DNA from: a virus
Strand: one strand, 5' to 3'
Virus record (IMG/VR): IMGVR_UViG_3300045988_108148
Length of the DNA: 64,000 nucleotides
A program made the position numbers and the translations under genes. The notes below the pieces were generated by a model. That model was not told the origin of the DNA. It made no database searches and saw only the letters and a list, made by a program, of their open reading frames with translations. This document shows, one piece after another, positions 1,690 through 17,588 of the stretch. Position 1 is the stretch's first letter. Each line of letters opens with the position of its first letter.

Positions 1690-2226
1690 TTAGATATTAA
1701 CGTCAATACCTAACTCTTTCATCCGAGTCCGACAAGCTGTAGCCTCAAGCTCATTTGCCTCGGCTAAAGTTCCACAGAACTTCATCTGAGCATTCAAGAA
1801 GCTCTGAAGTACGTTCTTCTCATCCCGGTTAAGGGCCATAACTTCCGGTACTAATTTAACATAGTCTACAAAGATAGTAATTTCTTCTTTGTTAGACCGT
1901 TCGTACTTCTCAATTGCTGCTTTAACAGTAGAAGCCGATGGTACCGGAATAACTTTCGTAATGTCGTCAATATTGGCGATATCGAGCCGTAATTTCGGAT
2001 CTTTATTGAACTGAACTTTACGTTCGTTACTCATTGATTCTACTAACTCGACTGAAGTTACCTCTATCGGTCGAATTGAGTATAGATAAATAGGCCGACT
2101 TAAAGTCAATGCACCATTCTTTTTATCTTCTGAATAATTTGTATCTACTGGGTTCCGTTCTACTACTAAAATATATTTACCCAGAGTTGCGCCACATTGT
2201 GCGGCATTAATACGCATATAATCCAT
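1690..2226 (-). CDS. hypothetical protein
   Basis: ORF track frame 1690..2265. I trimmed the start to the first ATG (MDYMRINAAQ...). AAGGAGG (reverse strand, 2242-2236) lies 9 nt upstream of it. Confidence 0.7.
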   Translation of the reverse strand: MDYMRINAAQCGATLGKYILVVERNPVDTNYSEDKKNGALTLSRPIYLYSIRPIEVTSVELVESMSNERKVQFNKDPKLRLDIANIDDITKVIPVPSASTVKAAIEKYERSNKEEITIFVDYVKLVPEVMALNRDEKNVLQSFLNAQMKFCGTLAEANELEATACRTRMKELGIDVNI

Positions 2227-4676
2227 AATTTGTTTCCTCCTTGATTTCGTGGTTGATTCCACCAACGAAACATTTTAAATTGTTTTTAAAAGATCAATGA
2301 ACTCAAATAAAATAAAAGAACTTCTTTACTGGAGTATTTCCTAAATAGGGGATGTTGTTGCCCAGGTGCCTGTTATCTTATCGCCTACGTCAATTCAATG
2401 ACTACTCCTTGAAATTATTCTTTATACTTGATAAGCTTGTTGGATTCTATTTCACTCTGTAATTCTGCTATTGCTATTACTCTAGCACTCCATAGAGACA
2501 CATTTAAGTAGATACTTCCTCTTCTTAAATGACACTTTTTCATCTAGTGCATTATGGAACTAGTCTTACTCTAGAATTATCCAATTATACTTTTCATATT
2601 AACTAATGAAGGTTCGTGTCATGACTAACTGTCCCTTACGCTTGCCCAACATCAGACTAATGAGATCTTACGACATTAATTAATAAGTCACAAGATCAAT
2701 ACGTTTTTACTATCTTCTACCGCTGTATATTGATAGGGATATGCACATGCTACTAGTTCTTTACATTTCTAGGCTTCTCTAGCAAATGTTATATCTTTGT
2801 CAATACAAATATACTATTATTAGTATGTGTGTCTTAAATTGGCTTAAACACACTGATAAGATATAATAAACCATATAGGATTACTTTATCGAATATTCCA
2901 CATATACGGTCGTTTTAGGAACGTTACCAAACCCAACACTTCTAGTCTTTTCACCCTAAAGTGGTTGCCACTCTATTCTTTCATATGCAGTATACTGCCC
3001 ATATGACCTTTTCGAGGATTTTTCTGTTTTACAAGCTCGAATATTGAGGACTTTCACCTACTTTCCATTTACTCTTACTTACAAATAGGTCTATAAGTAT
3101 TAGTTCGCTTTCGGTCACTCTTAAAGATTTATAAGTTTCAATGAAACGCTTTATACCGATCATATAATTTATCATCATACTCTAGTATTCATGCACGAAG
3201 CAATAACGGTTGGCTTGTTGAGGGCGCAGTCAGAAAATGGTTTACCTTATCCTACAAATGATAGGCTTTTCCTAGCGAGGACTTCCTCAAATTTTATTTT
3301 AACTCGGGATTTTGGCCCCTACGGTGTTAAACATGTTAATACTCTCTAATATTCTTTATTTAAGAGGAAATATGACTCTCGGGCCAGTGGTGAATCTTTG
3401 GATTCAGTAGCTCTACGTTAATAGACTTGAACTTAGCCCATTGACTTTACAAAAGCCCTACTTTCGTTATATATTTTAAAGAAAGCATACTAAACTTTGC
3501 AGGTTTCTCGGATATCAACCGACGGACTCTGTTAGCCGACGTCAAAAACTTTGTATTAGGTAAGTCAGACCTGTTTTAGATACATACAGTGTTACCGTAT
3601 TACAATCTTGCCAAGAGTTGTTCTAAAACTTGGATTAACGTTTTGGTACGCTTCACCAAACCTCTGCGTTTCCATTTATTATCGTGATATAACTCATGCA
3701 GTAAACACAATCACGTTGATATTAATAGTTCTATAAAGTATAGGTTTGGCACCTAATCCGGATAATCTGTCATACGTATCCATAGAAAATAAGTCTCGAA
3801 TTCATTTCTATTTCCTAGTATGGATCATAGCCACTCAGCCATATGAATCCTTAGTAATAACACCAACTGTTGACCTTTACTTCTAAGAGTAAAAGTTGTA
3901 GTAATTGATTCTACTTTCTTTAGATTCGTAGCACCTTATAGCACCCTCTATTAAATATCTAATCTCCTTCATAACTACACTTCCCCTATATTCTTTTATA
4001 TAGATGTTTCAGCACTAATGTAGTGAACACTGAGATAGCAAATTTATTTAACCTATCCAAATTAATTAAAGTGGATTCAGTAAGGTAGCTTTGGACACTA
4101 CCCGGAACTTAGTCAGTTCTTTGTTGAGTAATTCTATCACCCTTTGTGATAGTTGCGGTTGCTGTTTAAAGTCCCTTCTTGATTTCAGGATTGGTTTCCT
4201 CCACGGACTTCTAATGAAGTTTACTATTGTCTTTACTCTAAGACTTAATAATTACATTGTCACCTATAATTATTAATAGCTGCTGAAGCAGACTCCATAT
4301 ATCGTTTATCTTCTACGTTTCCCTACTTTATCGGTAAGCGTATTGAAGTGTCTTCTCTTAGTATATTCGCCAGACGGTTCTCAATATCTATAGAATGGAT
4401 TGATATCTACACTATTCCATTTTCTTATTAACTTTTCTAGAGTAAAAGGATATACTCATTAATAAGTTATCATATTACCTTTTGAATTGCGTGTTAGCGC
4501 TATCATATTCTCATATCCTGTTTTCCTTGTCTATATTATGCGATTCGTTGATCAGACTTGTCCAAACATAATATACGCTGTCTTATTGCTTTTTAAGTGT
4601 ACAGCTACAATACCACTCTCCTTCTTCTTACTACGGGTAAGGAGTCGTTTGACCCGACAGCTTTTATCTTTAACTG

Positions 4677-4772
4677 TTATATTATACACCATGCAAAAAG
4701 TAAACACATTATAAAGAAGATAATTAAGCCTACAAATGCTAATTTATCTAATGTATTATTATTTGCTTTCAT
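4677..4772 (-). CDS. 31-aa single-pass membrane miniprotein (below ORF-track threshold)
   Basis: Own translation gives MKANNNTLDKLAFVGLIIFFIMCLLFAWCII. Its ATG overlaps the TGA of ORF 4769..5170 (ATGA coupling). Confidence 0.4.
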   Translation of the reverse strand: MKANNNTLDKLAFVGLIIFFIMCLLFAWCII

Positions 4773-9237: not shown

Positions 9238-9265
9238 AAGCTTTTTAAAATAATTAAATAAATTG

Positions 9266-9337
9266 TTATCTAGGTGGGATTCGAACCCACAATCTCCTGA
9301 TAAAATCCAGGGCTTTATCCAGTTAAGCTACTAGACA
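9266..9337 (-). tRNA. tRNA-like gene, Lys(UUU)-like, with a 16-nt (one nt short) anticodon arm
   Basis: The reverse strand (72 nt) reads TGTCTAG-TA-GCTT-AACTGGATA-AAGC-CCTGG-ATTTTA-TCAGG-AGATT-GTGGG-TTCGAAT-CCCAC-CTAGATA-A. It has a 7-bp acceptor (one G-U), a D arm with GG, and a canonical T-loop. The anticodon arm folds only as 5 bp plus a 6-nt loop, or 4 bp plus an 8-nt loop. No CCA is encoded. Confidence 0.5.
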
Positions 9338-9537: not shown

Positions 9538-10089
9538 ATGTTAAAATATAAACGAAATAGAAAATTAATTCAGTTAACGTGTGATAACTGTGGAAAACTA
9601 TACGATAAACCAATTACAGAATATAATCGTAATATACGACTAAAAAGACATAATTTTTGTTCTAGATCTTGCGCAATTAAATATTCTAATAAGATAAATA
9701 AAAGAAAAGGTAATCCTCAATATTTAATTGCAGATAATCGTAAAGATGAATTTACACCTTTTAGATATTACTTAAGAAATGTAAGAAATAGATTTAAATT
9801 CTTTAATTTAACTTTAGAATATTTAAAAGAATTATGGGAAGAACAAAAAGGTATTTGTCCATATACTGGATTACAATTACAGTTAGCGACATATACTAAA
9901 AATCATAATAATCCTATTTATACTGCGTCTTTAGATAGAATAGATTCTTCTAAAGGATATGAAATTGGTAATGTTCAATTCATATCTACTGCAATAAATT
10001 ATATGAAAAACACAATGTCTCACGAAGATACTCTTAAGCTATGTAAAATAATAGCTGAAAAGTATAGTGGAGATGGAGGCATACGATAG
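9538..10089 (+). CDS. HNH-family homing endonuclease with an N-terminal Cys4 finger
   Basis: 183 aa with CDNCGKLY...CSRSC and LDRIDSSKGYEIGNVQFISTAINYMKN. It is a paralogue of the ORFs at 31152 and 58236. It is the only plus-strand gene embedded in the minus-strand arm. Confidence 0.75.
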   Translation: MLKYKRNRKLIQLTCDNCGKLYDKPITEYNRNIRLKRHNFCSRSCAIKYSNKINKRKGNPQYLIADNRKDEFTPFRYYLRNVRNRFKFFNLTLEYLKELWEEQKGICPYTGLQLQLATYTKNHNNPIYTASLDRIDSSKGYEIGNVQFISTAINYMKNTMSHEDTLKLCKIIAEKYSGDGGIR

Positions 10090-10717
10090 CCTCGTCCTAA
10101 TAGTTTCCAATAAACCTAATAAGATATATCACAGTTCTTATGATATAAATTTTGAAACAAACATCTTTATGAAAGATAGTAGATAAAGAGAGATCACTCT
10201 CTCTTTACCTTATAAATCTATAACAATAGTAAGAATTCTTTTTTATACGAGTGTATTCCTCTAAGAGTGCGCAATGCGACTTATGTCTTACCTATAATAC
10301 ATGTTTATCTCTTAAAAAGAATGGTCTTAGGCATGTAGCTCTCTACTACTATAGAAAATGCCTTTGATAGATCTACAGAATTTGAAGTTTATCTTGTCAT
10401 CAAAAGATTGTAAGCATCAACTTCGGCATATAGCTCTAATTCTGTGTGTGATTTGATATCATTACTATACTTAACTTACTTACGTAAGCCTATCACTAGG
10501 TCTTGACTCAAGGTTCTAGCGATTCAGCAGTACATGCTCGTACTTTTTCAAGTGATAGTAATGATCTCAGGCACGTGATCAGTGGCTCAGAATTTTCCAC
10601 TCTGGCTCAAGGCTCTTGAGTATCTTGTTAATTCAAGATAATTTTTATTCTACTCCAATTCGAATAATTAAATCGTGGTATTAATCTCTTTCTAGAACTA
10701 AATATACGGAAAGAGAT

Positions 10718-10743
10718 TGGGAGGCCTCTCGGACACTCCCAAC
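10718..10743 (-). terminator. 7-bp hairpin downstream of ORF 10770..11147
   Basis: TTGGGAG-GCCTCTCGGACA-CTCCCAA. On the reverse strand it is followed by TCTCTTTCC. It abuts a second 10-bp inverted repeat, AATCTCTTTC/GAAAGAGATT (10684-10719). Confidence 0.4.
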
Positions 10744-10769
10744 TCTGATTTCGGAGTTAAATTACTGGA

Positions 10770-13069: not shown

Positions 13070-13537
13070 TTTTGATAAATTTAAGTTATAACTTTTGATG
13101 ACGTCTCTGTATGTACAACTACAGAGATAGTTTTGATTGAACGATTGTTGATTAACAACAACTCATATTGTACTATGAGCAACTAATAACAAGTGTCATC
13201 GTAAAGTTTTATGCTTGCAAAATAAATATTAAAAAACTCTTACATAAAACTTCTTATAATCGGCTATCTAACATATTTTACGTTATAGCAGAATTGTATT
13301 GCCAGTACAATTCTTATTAACGACATGATTTTAACGTCCGCACGATCATAGTATTTGCAATTATCAGTACTAATTAGAACAATTGCCATTCTTCTTCTCC
13401 CGCATAAAAATACTACTTACGCCCCACATGCTTGTCATCTTCTGATGATCTAATAATAAAAATATGCACTACCTTCACAGGCAATGCATATAAATGAATT
13501 ATAAGTCAGAAATTCAAAAAAGTTATTGCAATCATGA

Positions 13538-15543: not shown

Positions 15544-15719
15544 ATTATTAAGTATTAATGATTCAGATTTAAAAGACTATTAGCTTCGGTAGCCGTTGGC
15601 ATTCGTTCAGCCCGGCAATTTAAACCTACTAGACCCTAGAACCACTAACTTTGTATATTAACCAAACGCGCATGAAGTATTGTAGTTAGCTACGATGAGG
15701 TTGTCTTTACTCTAGGGAA

Positions 15720-15751
15720 ATTATATGCGTATTTCACAATAGGCATATAAT
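15720..15751. repeat. hairpin A: 9-bp stem with a 14-nt loop GTATTTCACAATAG
   Basis: ATTATATGC-GTATTTCACAATAG-GCATATAAT. Confidence 0.75.
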
Positions 15752-15817
15752 AAGTTGTCAAATCTTTGTTGTCTTTAGAAGGCATATAATATAATGTAAT
15801 TAAGAATCTTCTTAAGT

Positions 15818-15849
15818 AATACACACGTATTTCACAATAGGTGTGTATT
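15818..15849. repeat. hairpin B: 9-bp stem with the identical 14-nt loop GTATTTCACAATAG
   Basis: AATACACAC-GTATTTCACAATAG-GTGTGTATT. Four stem positions differ from hairpin A, and each is compensated on the opposite arm. Confidence 0.75.
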
Positions 15850-15890
15850 TAATGTAGACATTATCTTTATTAACCAAAAGAATAACGTGA

Positions 15891-16085
15891 TTACTTTAAT
15901 TCTCTTCTAACATCATCTAAAATACCATGAAAAACACTAATACTAAGTTTATCCTTAAATTCAATATATGCAAATAATATCACACATATTGGATATAGGA
16001 TGGGATCGTCCAACAGTATTAATAATATTATCATGTAGATAAGTATTCTTAATACTGACCAAATGAATGATATTATCTTTCTCAT
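15891..16085 (-). CDS. small two-helix membrane protein
   Basis: ORF track, 64 aa, strongly hydrophobic. Confidence 0.6.
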   Translation of the reverse strand: MRKIISFIWSVLRILIYMIILLILLDDPILYPICVILFAYIEFKDKLSISVFHGILDDVRRELK

Positions 16086-16099
16086 ATATTAAAAATTTG

Positions 16100-16171
16100 A
16101 TCTCCTAGACAGGGTCGAACTGTCAATCTTCAGATAATAATACTGACGTTTTTCCATTAAACTATAGGAGT
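16100..16171 (-). tRNA. tRNA-like gene, Ile(UAU)-like
   Basis: The reverse strand (72 nt) reads ACTCCTA-TA-GTTT-AATGGAA-AAAC-G-TCAGT-ATTATTA-TCTGA-AGATT-GACAG-TTCGACC-CTGTC-TAGGAGA-T. A cloverleaf fits, with A1-A72 and U31-U39 mismatches. The 7-nt loop places UAU at positions 34-36 but an unusual U at 37. No CCA is encoded. Confidence 0.55.
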
Positions 16172-16573
16172 TTTGTATATCCAGATACTTATTTTTCAGT
16201 TAGTATCAGACTGTCTTACACCATTTTACCCTTTTATGGTTAAACATTTTCGATTGTAAGCTTACTTAGTTACTAATAACACAATAGTGCACCATGCGAA
16301 CCTAACATGCTATTGCAAGGAATATTATCAATTTTGGCCATATTGATAAAGGTTTTAATTCGATTCCTTCTCTGCTATGACTGCTTTTACTATAAACGTT
16401 GTGCATATATTTATAATAAAAGCCTATTTATTTGTATCTAGATCTAGTTGTCATAGTTTGCTAGTACTAGAATTTAACTGACTCTGCATTTACTTAGGCT
16501 TGTCACTAACCGTGGCTGCATTACGTTAAATTAAAAAGAAAGTTGTGTATCACTTCATACACTGGGTGGTTTG

Positions 16574-16741
16574 TTATTCATGTTTAATAACCTTGACACC
16601 AAAATAGATACCAATTAAAGTTGGTATTATGTACAGTAATATATTAGTTACTGCATAACGTGGCTGACTTATTGTTATTACTATATAAAATAATAATACT
16701 AACAATAGTATACCAAATAGAATGTAATTGAGTGCTTTCAT
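16574..16741 (-). CDS. 55-aa two-helix membrane miniprotein (below ORF-track threshold)
   Basis: Own translation gives MKALNYILFGILLLVLLFYIVITISQPRYAVTNILLYIIPTLIGIYFGVKVIKHE. Its ATG overlaps the TGA of ORF 16738..16947. Confidence 0.5.
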   Translation of the reverse strand: MKALNYILFGILLLVLLFYIVITISQPRYAVTNILLYIIPTLIGIYFGVKVIKHE

Positions 16742-16947
16742 TTTCTTCTATATTTATTGTTAAATGTATCTACTGCTTTTTCTCTATTAGGAAAGGTAGT
16801 TATTACTAATTTCCCTTCTTTTTCGAGAATAATAGACCACTCGAAAGCGTGCTTTCCAACTAGGATAACTTTACGTCCTAGTGCATCTTCGACTATTGCT
16901 CTAACTGTGGCATCACAATTTGATTTGTGATATTTTCTCTTACTCAT
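16738..16947 (-). CDS. hypothetical protein
   Basis: ORF track, 69 aa. Confidence 0.6.
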   Translation of the reverse strand: MSKRKYHKSNCDATVRAIVEDALGRKVILVGKHAFEWSIILEKEGKLVITTFPNREKAVDTFNNKYRRK

Positions 16948-16953
16948 AGATTC

Positions 16954-17136
16954 TTATTTATTAAATGAGTTTATTGCTAAAAAACATATTCCAATAAATA
17001 TCCAATAAGCTAATGACCATTCTAATATTATATCTAATATTGCTGAGAATTTCGCTTTTGGATCTAATCCCATTGATAATAGGTATAAACATGACATTAT
17101 GTAAAATCCTATTGTTGCTTTTGTTCCGTTACTCAT
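16954..17136 (-). CDS. small membrane protein
   Basis: ORF track, 60 aa, hydrophobic. Confidence 0.55.
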   Translation of the reverse strand: MSNGTKATIGFYIMSCLYLLSMGLDPKAKFSAILDIILEWSLAYWIFIGICFLAINSFNK

Positions 17137-17169
17137 TTTATTTAATTTATTGATTAATAATCAAATAAA

Positions 17170-17266
17170 CTTACAAATAGGGATTCTCTACTCTGGCGTT
17201 ATGATTCTGAAATCAATGTTGTAGTAGCTAAGTATTTACAAGGATAGTCCTAAACCTATTTGTAAG
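17170..17266. repeat. perfect 12-bp inverted repeat enclosing 73 nt
   Basis: CTTACAAATAGG (17170-17181) pairs with CCTATTTGTAAG (17255-17266). Confidence 0.7.
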
Positions 17267-17449
17267 AAACTAGTGCCAATTTACACCTAAAACTTTAGAT
17301 TAATCTACCTTTATTCGATGATTATTTTCACTTTATGCACATTCTCAGCCTTAAAGTTCTAAAGAAACTGGTGTTCTCAACGTCTTGGAAAGTTATTAGT
17401 TTTTTGAATTTCGCTATATATTATATAAATTACTAATGGGCTTGTTGTG

Positions 17450-17504
17450 AAAAAGAGTGAAAATGAGGGGAGGGAGAACTGTTCTCACTACTCCCTCTCA
17501 CTCT
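17450..17504 (-). terminator. intrinsic terminator after ORF 17589..18188
   Basis: An interrupted stem: AGAGTGA/TCACTCT (17454-17460 with 17498-17504) plus GAGGGAG/CTCCCTC (17470-17476 with 17491-17497). It is followed by a T-run on the reverse strand. Confidence 0.6.
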
Positions 17505-17588
17505 CATTGTTTCATTTGCATGGTAGTCATTTGGTGCTTTATCTCCGATACGGTCAAACATACCCTACGAAGTCCCATGCAATACTCA

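Follow-up and report, generated by a model that had tools for sequence, protein, structure and literature searches.

What does a crAss-like phage keep in a stretch of some 2.4 kb in which no gene can be recognized? This question is raised by positions 2227 to 4676 of IMG/VR virus record IMGVR_UViG_3300045988_108148, of which 64,000 nucleotides were analyzed (hereafter the window). The stretch lies between two minus-strand open reading frames (ORFs), within a phage gene arm. The source phage belongs to the Suoliviridae, subfamily Boorivirinae, and its nearest relative is cr50_1. The present study reveals that five subfamilies share the stretch with its position, length, and sequence blocks preserved, and that its 5′ ~1.65 kb is a chain of local helices and multi-helix domains with invariant blocks in loops and junctions. 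Thus, the region very probably encodes a conserved structured RNA. A further step, for which we consider the chances reasonably good, is that a very large structured non-coding RNA of several domains is encoded here, on the minus strand like the neighboring genes, and is present family-wide in the Suoliviridae (the ‘delta’ crAss-like phages).

The absence of a protein gene was the starting observation of the original prediction, made by eye from the window, and its particulars hold. On the minus strand, between the gene at 1690-2226(-) and a 31-amino-acid ORF at 4677-4772(-), no ORF reaches the 60 amino acids looked for, the longest having 51. The three plus-strand ORFs that it had dismissed exist as listed (61 to 75 amino acids), and the stops it had seen scattered through the frames of 2266-4676 amount to 42 to 72 in each of the six. 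Per frame, TAG occurs at least 13 times, TAA at least 22 times, and TGA 4 to 18 times; TGA is rare (4 times) only in plus frame 1 and frequent in the five other frames. Since each of the three codons is frequent in nearly every frame, reassignment of a single stop codon cannot open one. The longest open stretch (74 amino acids) falls below the mean of shuffled sequence (89 amino acids), which is what non-coding DNA of such composition gives. ORFs of at least 60 amino acids cover 84% of the whole window, and 2266-4768 is its largest ORF-free stretch at a threshold of 80 amino acids. Across eight related genomes, substitutions in the flanking genes show a 3-nt periodicity of 13 and 83 times the median spectral power; none was found in the gap (2.5 times). 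Nor were small ORFs in the gap conserved across clusters, matches being confined to nearly identical nucleotide sequences.

Conservation of the gap itself is apparent from cr50_1 (Cohcovirus, Boorivirinae, Suoliviridae, Crassvirales), which matches 2266-4676 over its full length with 81% identity. Three further Boorivirinae genomes match it partly, and nearly no annotation lies beneath any of these matches, that of cr50_1 included. Through the upstream flanking protein we retrieved 63 IMG/VR loci. In all 64 loci holding both flanking genes, the window included, these are spaced by 2418 to 2549 nt. A metagenome scan raised the number of full-length Boorivirinae-type copies to 143 (94 distinct; 2392 to 2764 nt), and the element is present in all three Boorivirinae genera. 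Mean pairwise identity along the gap (0.5 to 0.7) is the same as in the flanking coding DNA, and conserved blocks alternate with indel-rich ones. Between genera, the neighboring 467-amino-acid protein retains 25 to 38% amino acid identity, and the gap blocks keep 70 to 80% nucleotide identity.

The same arrangement extends through the family. An ECF-type sigma factor ~2.4 kb upstream is conserved across the Suoliviridae, and the gene order runs from this sigma factor through a small gene and genes for ~470 and ~130 amino acids to the gap, followed by two genes for ~180 to 200 amino acids and the DNA polymerase. This order, with an unannotated gap of 1920 to 2223 nt, was found in all four other subfamilies sampled, namely Loutivirinae (cr52_1, cr4_1), Uncouvirinae (cr115_1, cr118_1), Bearivirinae (cr6_1), and Oafivirinae (cr131_1 from macaque, cr7_1 and cr273_1 from pig). 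The element occurs in every Suoliviridae lineage sampled, and phages carrying the gap come from human, macaque, pig, and water deer. In 16 lineages of the five subfamilies the gap is ORF-free, with at least 27 stops in every frame and a longest open stretch of 62 to 151 amino acids. A Boorivirinae sequence profile matched within the gaps of cr115_1 (7e-40), cr52_1 (2e-16), cr4_1 (5e-15), and cr6_1 (3e-11). The matches in cr4_1, cr6_1, and cr52_1 chain collinearly from the 5′ core to the 3′ end, with a single piece out of order: the 3′ end of cr52_1 is matched by the profile of an internal repeated motif of the window. The original prediction had allowed that relatives might show the region to be unconserved; the opposite was found, as length, position, and blocks are kept family-wide.

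The 5′ part contains a core domain (R1; window 4539-4360), from which a covariance model of 175 positions was built. Corresponding scores were 56 to 181 bits in 17 lineages of five subfamilies, four of these lineages being outside the training set: cr273_1 (87 bits, E 2e-19), cr118_1 (69 bits, E 7e-15), cr131_1 (66 bits, E 5e-14), and cr7_1 (56.5 bits, E 1e-11). All four matches are full-length, in the 5′ part of the gap, and on the sense strand. The model marks the family specifically, with exactly one strong match in the 64-kb window. A weak second match in the cr115_1 locus (L217 3892-4059(+), 20 bits, E 0.014) falls where nothing is annotated, upstream of a gene for tRNA-Leu, and may be due to chance.

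Searching with a pattern made from the family-wide blocks recovered at least 120 IMG/VR contigs, most of them 95 to 105 kb long, and at least 80 metagenome contigs carry the element. The loci with family-wide blocks yielded 25 further clusters at 90% identity, and by iterated profiles all 25 hold a homologue of 3300-3024 at a collinear offset. Among 185,579 species-representative cellular genomes, the element was found on only six contigs of 40 to 101 kb (L326-L331, from GTDB), which sit in metagenome-assembled genomes labeled Lachnospiraceae, Sphaerochaeta, Bacteroidaceae, Segatella copri, and ‘bacterium’; one of the six is from water-deer caecum. These are probably crAss-like phage contigs mis-binned into assemblies of inconsistent taxa.

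From 5′ to 3′ on the minus strand, the flanking ORF and the parts of the element to which the following evidence refers are:

4677-4772, minus strand: flanking small ORF, hydrophobic, MKANNNTLDKLAFVGLIIFFIMCLLFAWCII; sets the 5′ boundary and lies outside the RNA.
2227-4676, minus strand: whole conserved non-coding element, from the stop codon of the small (probably membrane-peptide) ORF to the start codon of gene 2226-1690; syntenic, ORF-free, collinear.
4634-4677, minus strand: two 5′-terminal hairpins, 4677-4657 and 4656-4634, of 5 bp each, with 4 and 2 compensatory pairs.
4532-4616, minus strand: two hairpins, 4616-4577 (11 bp, 2 compensatory pairs) and 4575-4532 (10-12 bp, 6-8 compensatory pairs).
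4360-4539, minus strand: family-wide core domain (R1) of four to five helices, by covariance model and 17-lineage covariation.
4174-4205, minus strand: internal copy of a repeated motif, a hairpin with AAUCAA-type loop, then GAAAUCAAGAAGG, with no ORF after it; from a repeat search.
3735-4095, minus strand: middle domain with several covarying helices (e.g., 3896-3873, 3822-3771, 3755-3741).
3683-3715, minus strand: hairpin of 6 bp with 4 compensatory pairs and 0 of 72 cells unpaired.
3300-3488, minus strand: domain with invariant blocks CACUGGCCCGAGAGU (3389-3375) and UAACAUGUUUAAC (3338-3326) and lineage-specific insertions between its helices.
3024-3300, minus strand: best-defined multi-helix domain, 44 predicted pairs, containing AGGUGAAAGUCCUC (3059-3046).
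2300-3023, minus strand: 3′ variable part, non-coding, identity 0.55 to 0.64, with a T-rich tract at 2320-2302.
2236-2267, minus strand: 3′ copy of the repeated motif, hairpin GUGG-AAUCAA-CCAC, then GAAAUCAAGGAGG; overlaps the ribosome-binding site of gene 2226-1690.

Covariation analysis of the homologous regions revealed paired, covarying helices on the minus strand over ~1.65 kb. Among the explanations that the original prediction had put forward (one or several large structured non-coding RNAs, a decayed large gene, or a replication or regulatory region), this conserved minus-strand structure supports the first. Simple inspection of the conserved blocks shows compensatory changes. For the domain tests we used 12 representative sequences, with controls in which the pairing partner was slid by one to three columns and with 500 shuffles. 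In 3300-3024, 99.2% of the cells of 44 predicted pairs were paired (31 to 49% when slid), and 19 pairs had changed on both sides (1 to 3 when slid). In 4685-4361, the values for 54 predicted pairs were 96.1% (29 to 50%) and 28 pairs (2 to 10). None of the 500 shuffles reached the observed value on four of five measures in either domain. For the family-wide core (4539-4360), in an alignment of 17 lineages, 95.9% of the cells were paired (32 to 54% when slid) and 24 of 29 pairs had changed on both sides; here no shuffle out of 500 reached any of the five measures, including the pair-type count, a measure that by the tool's own rating seldom gives false positives. The domain 3488-3300 added 31 predicted pairs, 11 of them compensatory.

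Consensus folding gave a whole-gap alifold energy of -388 kcal/mol, as compared to -90 to -115 kcal/mol for column-shuffled alignments. Per 100 columns, the middle-domain tile had an energy of -14.8 kcal/mol, and five of the six coding controls had values between -1.5 and -7.4. RNAalifold with the slide control is not discriminating alone, as in 300-nt tiles the coding controls were also 80 to 93% paired, with 7 to 30 ‘compensatory’ pairs. Since coding DNA thus looks structured by this procedure, we replaced it by a prediction-free count of stacks, defined as runs of four or more adjacent column pairs, canonical in every sequence, of which at least two are compensatory; parallel stacks served as the null. 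The gap at 4700-3020 (1435 aligned columns) held 15 antiparallel and 3 parallel stacks, and the flanking coding DNA (4184 aligned columns) 10 and 6. Structure is therefore demonstrated for the 5′ ~1.65 kb (4680-3030). Retention of single-sequence minimum-free-energy helices in relatives was also tried; this measure had no power, failing even on a domain with unambiguous covariation, and was discarded.

The count of G·U pairs against A·C cells was 61:0 in 3300-3024 and 52:9 and 109:12 in the two other best tiles. As G·U pairs far outnumber A·C cells, the RNA strand is the minus strand. This supports the minus-strand transcription that had been surmised from the pyrimidine-rich skew of the plus strand, a skew that is indeed present (GC and AT skew both negative).

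Several details of the individual domains are informative. The 5′-terminal hairpins (4677-4634), seen in Boorivirinae, begin directly after the small upstream ORF has ended with its stop codon; some of the other subfamilies have the core domain nearer the upstream gene than Boorivirinae do. The invariant blocks of the core are ACAG.AU, AUGAUA.CUUA, AAGAAAAUGG, and GAGAACCG..UGG (4382-4370). In the middle domain, helix 3896-3873 (9 bp) has 3 compensatory pairs and 0 of 81 cells unpaired, and helix 3755-3741 (5 bp) has 3 compensatory pairs and 0 of 60 cells unpaired. The blocks of 3300-3488, used as exact patterns, recover the clade. The second of them, UAACAUGUUUAAC, does not vary within Boorivirinae, is conserved throughout the family, and should be unpaired according to the prediction. 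The hexamer at its center, ACAUGU, is self-complementary; it is replaced by other palindromes (AAUAUU, CAAUUG) in some lineages and by non-self-complementary sequences in others. The site (3338-3326) may be a kissing loop, which would be a hint of intermolecular pairing at most. The domain 3024-3300 consists of a hairpin (3290-3218) and a closing helix (3217-3213/3036-3032) around a junction. In the 25 clusters outside the sample, its closing helices are preserved by new compensatory changes, with C-G replaced by A-U in 24 of 25, A-U by G-C or C-G in 23 of 25, and A-U by U-A in 24 of 25. The 3′ variable part is of conserved length within Boorivirinae and lacks codon periodicity; outside Boorivirinae, the sequence profile did not detect it, the terminal motif excepted.

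The surroundings of the element suggest how the RNA could be made. The core starts only 16 nt (cr6_1) or 57 nt (cr273_1) past the upstream stop codon. An intrinsic-terminator scan found no terminator-like sites on the minus strand of the gap, which is weak evidence against internal termination. As some lineages leave no space for a promoter of its own and a minus-strand terminator is missing, the RNA is probably co-transcribed with the neighboring genes and possibly then processed. It would be made within the gene-arm transcript, which would carry the sigma factor, the RNA, and the replication genes, and afterwards it would either remain in this long transcript or be excised. During infection, the RNA would act as a folded scaffold that binds a protein, the ribosome, or itself; action as an antisense regulator is unlikely.

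A motif of the element recurs at its downstream end. It consists of a covarying stem with an AAUCAA-type loop, then GAAAUCAAG(A/G)AGG, and is present in two copies as a direct repeat. The stem of the internal copy reads AGGA/UCCU, GUAC/GUAC, GCAC/GUGC, or GAGG/CCUC depending on the lineage; this copy occurs in most lineages and was not found in Oafivirinae, cr118_1, cr52_1, L004, L062, and L094. The 3′ copy is present in at least one representative of every subfamily sampled, and its stem likewise covaries (GUGG/CCAC, AAGA/UCUU, GUUU/AAAC, GUU/AAC). By the pattern used, it was not at this position in L002, L047, L004, L062, L094, L202, and cr118_1. Sequence-profile matches to the 3′ end of the element were obtained in cr6_1 (E 1e-11) and cr4_1. 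A hairpin that stands both inside the RNA and on the ribosome-binding site of the next gene suggests one shared factor. Such a factor would bind both AAUCAA hairpins and so couple the RNA to translation of the downstream replication-arm genes. Translational operators of phage genes include the hairpins on ribosome-binding sites that are bound by T4 RegA or gp32, or by MS2 coat protein. The 3′ AAUCAA hairpin resembles them in overlapping a ribosome-binding site; the likeness covers ~32 nt only, and, unlike in those operators, a second copy here belongs to the interior of a long non-coding RNA and precedes no ORF.

How far, then, can the stretch be read as one giant RNA? That a single giant RNA acts as a scaffold ranges from a tentative to a fairly probable proposition, depending on how much of the statement is required. 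The fullest form, in which one RNA of ~1.7 to 2.5 kb in every member of the family is a self-assembling or protein- or ribosome-binding machine (cage, scaffold, or ribozyme) needed at the replication switch, we offer as a speculation with some appeal. Several observations weigh against the giant-RNA reading. No structure above the coding-region background was found in the 3′ ~750 nt, either in tiles or in the stack scan (1 antiparallel and 0 parallel stacks over 554 aligned columns of 3020-2270). Single-sequence folding energies are ordinary (z = -0.23 for 3300-3024, and no significance on either strand), so the case rests on covariation. By strict criteria no long-range helix ties the domains together, with 1 antiparallel and 2 parallel stacks at spans above 500 nt, and ‘one RNA’ is therefore a proposal. 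When the Boorivirinae structure of 3300-3024 was applied to the 25 out-of-sample clusters, only 67.8% of the cells were paired (35 to 47% when slid), because its inner helices are lineage-specific or misaligned. A sigma-70 promoter scan gave sites barely above shuffled sequence, and its consensus is inapplicable to Bacteroidota as well as to the RNA polymerases of phages. That the stretch is transcribed, and where the RNA would begin and end, is read from sequence features. The scaffold, the most likely mode of action, is proposed by analogy with the RNAs GOLLD and ROOL, and the suggestion of a shared factor comes from one repeated motif. Moreover, the downstream 178-amino-acid protein, with 21 close homologues and an AlphaFold model of moderate quality (pLDDT, the predicted local distance difference test, 67.7), had no Foldseek match (all E at least 1).

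The alternative that survives best, although we hold it to be unlikely, is that the stretch is a tandem array of ~5 to 8 independent RNAs of 100 to 350 nt, co-transcribed, cut apart, and each with its own function. All supported helices are local, with 12 antiparallel stacks and 1 parallel stack at spans of up to 100 nt and nothing convincing above 500 nt, as an array would have it, and the domains are split by variable, indel-rich linkers. Small RNAs that stand on their own are also encoded elsewhere in the gene arm, namely RAGATH-22, a Hatchet ribozyme, and tRNAs. However, domain order, number, and spacing are conserved and collinear family-wide, and the total length is tightly constrained within Boorivirinae. 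Terminator-like sites are missing from the minus strand inside the gap, as is punctuation by ribozymes or tRNAs. Furthermore, locality by itself does not speak for separate RNAs, as GOLLD and ROOL likewise consist of local domains joined by disordered linkers and assemble partly via palindromic kissing loops (PMC12286853).

We find it improbable that the structure is a cis-acting intercistronic region of the mRNA which controls the downstream replication genes (in timing, stability, anti-termination, or translation) and has no function as a free RNA. Its place on the same strand between two gene blocks, with little promoter space and no terminator, would suit such a role, and so would the hairpin motif, which in each of the sampled subfamilies coincides with the site where ribosomes bind for the next gene. 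However, ~1.65 kb of invariant loops and junctions with covarying multi-helix domains go far beyond known leaders, the best-conserved domains lie 1 to 2 kb upstream of the start codon that would be regulated, and no ORF follows the motif's internal copy.

A DNA-level element (a replication origin, packaging site, or recombination region) in which RNA structure is incidental is very improbable. The element adjoins the replication gene block, lying just upstream of it, and its 3′ ~750 nt show no RNA structure. In a cr10_1-type genome (L004), moreover, the small ORF together with the initial ~100 nt of the element hardly differs from window 4772-4630, with ~58% identity in the remainder, which suggests a recombination breakpoint in the 5′ part of the element of this type. 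By contrast, the gap holds no iterons or repeat arrays and no repeat families beyond two-copy matches. Its GC content (0.34 overall, 0.32 to 0.38 along the gap) equals or exceeds that of its surroundings, and cumulative GC skew runs monotonically across it without a turning point. Judged by iterons, an AT-rich unwinding region, and a skew turning point, a replication origin was rejected. In addition, compensation that keeps G·U but not A·C points to a single strand acting as RNA and not to duplex DNA. The replication or regulatory region considered in the original prediction is thus disfavored for the structured part, given its lack of iterons and AT-richness and its many G·U pairs, and may apply to the 3′ ~750 nt.

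Finally, the stretch could be a protein gene that has decayed or is disguised (a pseudogene, one in an alternative code, or one interrupted by introns). This was worth considering, as reassignment of TAG or TGA and numerous introns occur in some crAss-like phages (PMC7886860), and can be practically dismissed: all six frames are rich in TAA and TAG, and five of them in TGA, no frame opens with TAG read as Gln or TGA as Trp, codon periodicity and intron-model matches are missing, each lineage has both flanking genes complete and separate without a conserved peptide between them, and a decayed large gene, as had been conjectured, is refuted since no relative among the 16 lineages has an ORF there and the sequence is under constraint with its length, position, and blocks kept.

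Does the element belong to a known class of RNA? None of the 4227 families of Rfam 15 matched within 2266-4676 at the gathering score. These include GOLLD, ROOL, HEARO, and the group I/II introns, to which the original prediction had pointed, as well as OLE, raiA, RNase P, and the transfer-messenger RNA (tmRNA). A permissive scan with E up to 10 returned three chance-level matches to unrelated families, and ARAGORN found no tRNA or tmRNA within the gap. The blocks GAGGAAGUCC and GGUGAAAGUCC recall what we take to be conserved region I of RNase P; their order misfits RNase P, and the models do not match. A group I/II intron was rejected, as, besides the missing Rfam match, every lineage has two complete flanking genes that are separate and unrelated to each other, and no internal ORF exists.

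The closest likeness is to GOLLD (RF01998) and ROOL (RF03087), which are also phage-encoded and very large, with many covarying local domains, conserved unpaired nucleotides, and a well-conserved part next to a less conserved part or linker. The tRNA genes and small RNAs in the same genome arm are a further likeness. However, neither of the two matches the element in sequence or structure, even at E up to 10. The structured part alone measures ~1.65 kb (1.9 to 2.8 kb in total), which is 2 to 3 times longer than ROOL (~660 nt) and GOLLD (>800 nt). Unlike both, the element belongs to Crassvirales phages of Bacteroidota and occupies a fixed syntenic site within a gene arm, not beside a tRNA island. 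The partly maintained palindrome in the invariant block is the only hint of oligomerization of the GOLLD/ROOL kind. OLE, raiA, and HEARO (the IS605 omega RNA) are likewise large, conserved structured RNAs that were found by comparative genomics before their function; in contrast to them, the element has no Rfam match and is phage-borne rather than cellular, and searches with the flanking proteins revealed no nuclease or transposase gene nearby. Being phage-encoded, longer than 500 nt, non-coding, and composed of several covarying domains with invariant unpaired blocks, it would be a new class within a known kind, the large ornate phage non-coding RNAs, unusual in its size and its fixed syntenic position.

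No viruses of the human gut are more abundant than the Crassvirales, whose largest branch is the Delta group (Suoliviridae; PMC7886860). Yutin et al. described kilobase stretches without real genes in crAss-like genomes, mainly in the Zeta group and without an explanation, in which the predicted peptides do not match between close genomes. The present stretch differs in that it lies in the Delta group, is conserved family-wide, and carries RNA structure. In a survey of IMG/VR, Fremin et al. 2023 reported 8,495 candidate RNAs of DNA viruses averaging 67 nt, with no mention of crAss phages (PMC10690425). The data source and the method, covariation in intergenic DNA, are those used here, and no kilobase-scale unit was described; individual hairpins of the element may be among their candidates. 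We found no published description of the element in the full-text literature, a search in which most subscription journals fall outside the scope, so a prior description is possible.

If the stretch does give rise to a single RNA of ~1.7 to 2.5 kb, this would be the largest class of structured non-coding RNA in bacteria and their viruses, ribosomal RNA aside. The Suoliviridae are the most species-rich family of human-gut crAss-like phages, and ~2% of each such genome would be a conserved folded RNA that no annotation lists. To our knowledge, only a handful of large ‘ornate’ RNAs exist. Each of those known has repaid study; GOLLD and ROOL, for instance, assemble into cages made of RNA only. For structure inference, public data already offer more than 100 natural variants of the present element, and its fixed place between regulatory and replication genes poses a concrete question.

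For annotators, the element is a reason against forcing ORFs into such gaps. Several RefSeq records overlay it with short coding-sequence calls. A ‘hypothetical protein’ of cr10_1 (gp22, L004 7372-7557) lies in the RNA, one of cr7_1 (gp52, L221 10379-10861) is antisense within it, and the call of an upstream coding sequence in cr131_1 (gp30) runs with its 3′ end into the core (L220 ~10006-10061). These three calls are probably spurious or over-extended. The reverse may hold for the flanking small ORF at 4677-4772, which begins within an ATGA that also ends the upstream gene. Its substitutions have a codon-like periodicity of 7.8 times the median, and it is found in most clusters in diverged sequence. 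It is probably a real small membrane peptide, unannotated in the RefSeq relatives. The other flanking proteins, searched against PHROGs, Pfam, and PDB sequences, gave nothing except the ECF sigma factor.

Other parts of the window deserve a brief mention. An ORF-free appearance at 61 to 64 kb is an artefact of ORF definition, the frames there being open with no listed start or running off the end of the window. Two other ORF-free stretches of the same gene arm, 10090-10769 and 13070-13537, are accounted for by full-length Rfam matches to a RAGATH-22 RNA at 10576-10742(-) (191 bits) and to a Hatchet self-cleaving ribozyme at 13323-13449(-) (98.9 bits). At 9265-9337(-) lies a tRNA-like gene (Rfam tRNA, 47.6 bits) to which ARAGORN cannot assign an anticodon (‘tt’ at position 34). 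Many relatives carry an annotated ‘tmRNA’ of 360 to 500 nt roughly syntenic to it, upstream of regulator and sigma-factor genes (e.g., L001 13012-13507, L004 12761-13146, L215 8180-8560); ARAGORN called no tmRNA in the window. A second ORF-poor stretch of ~2 kb, at 15544-17588, has stops in six frames, a GC content of 0.305, and ORFs of only 60 to 69 amino acids, and contains a tRNA-Ile(TAT) at 16099-16171.

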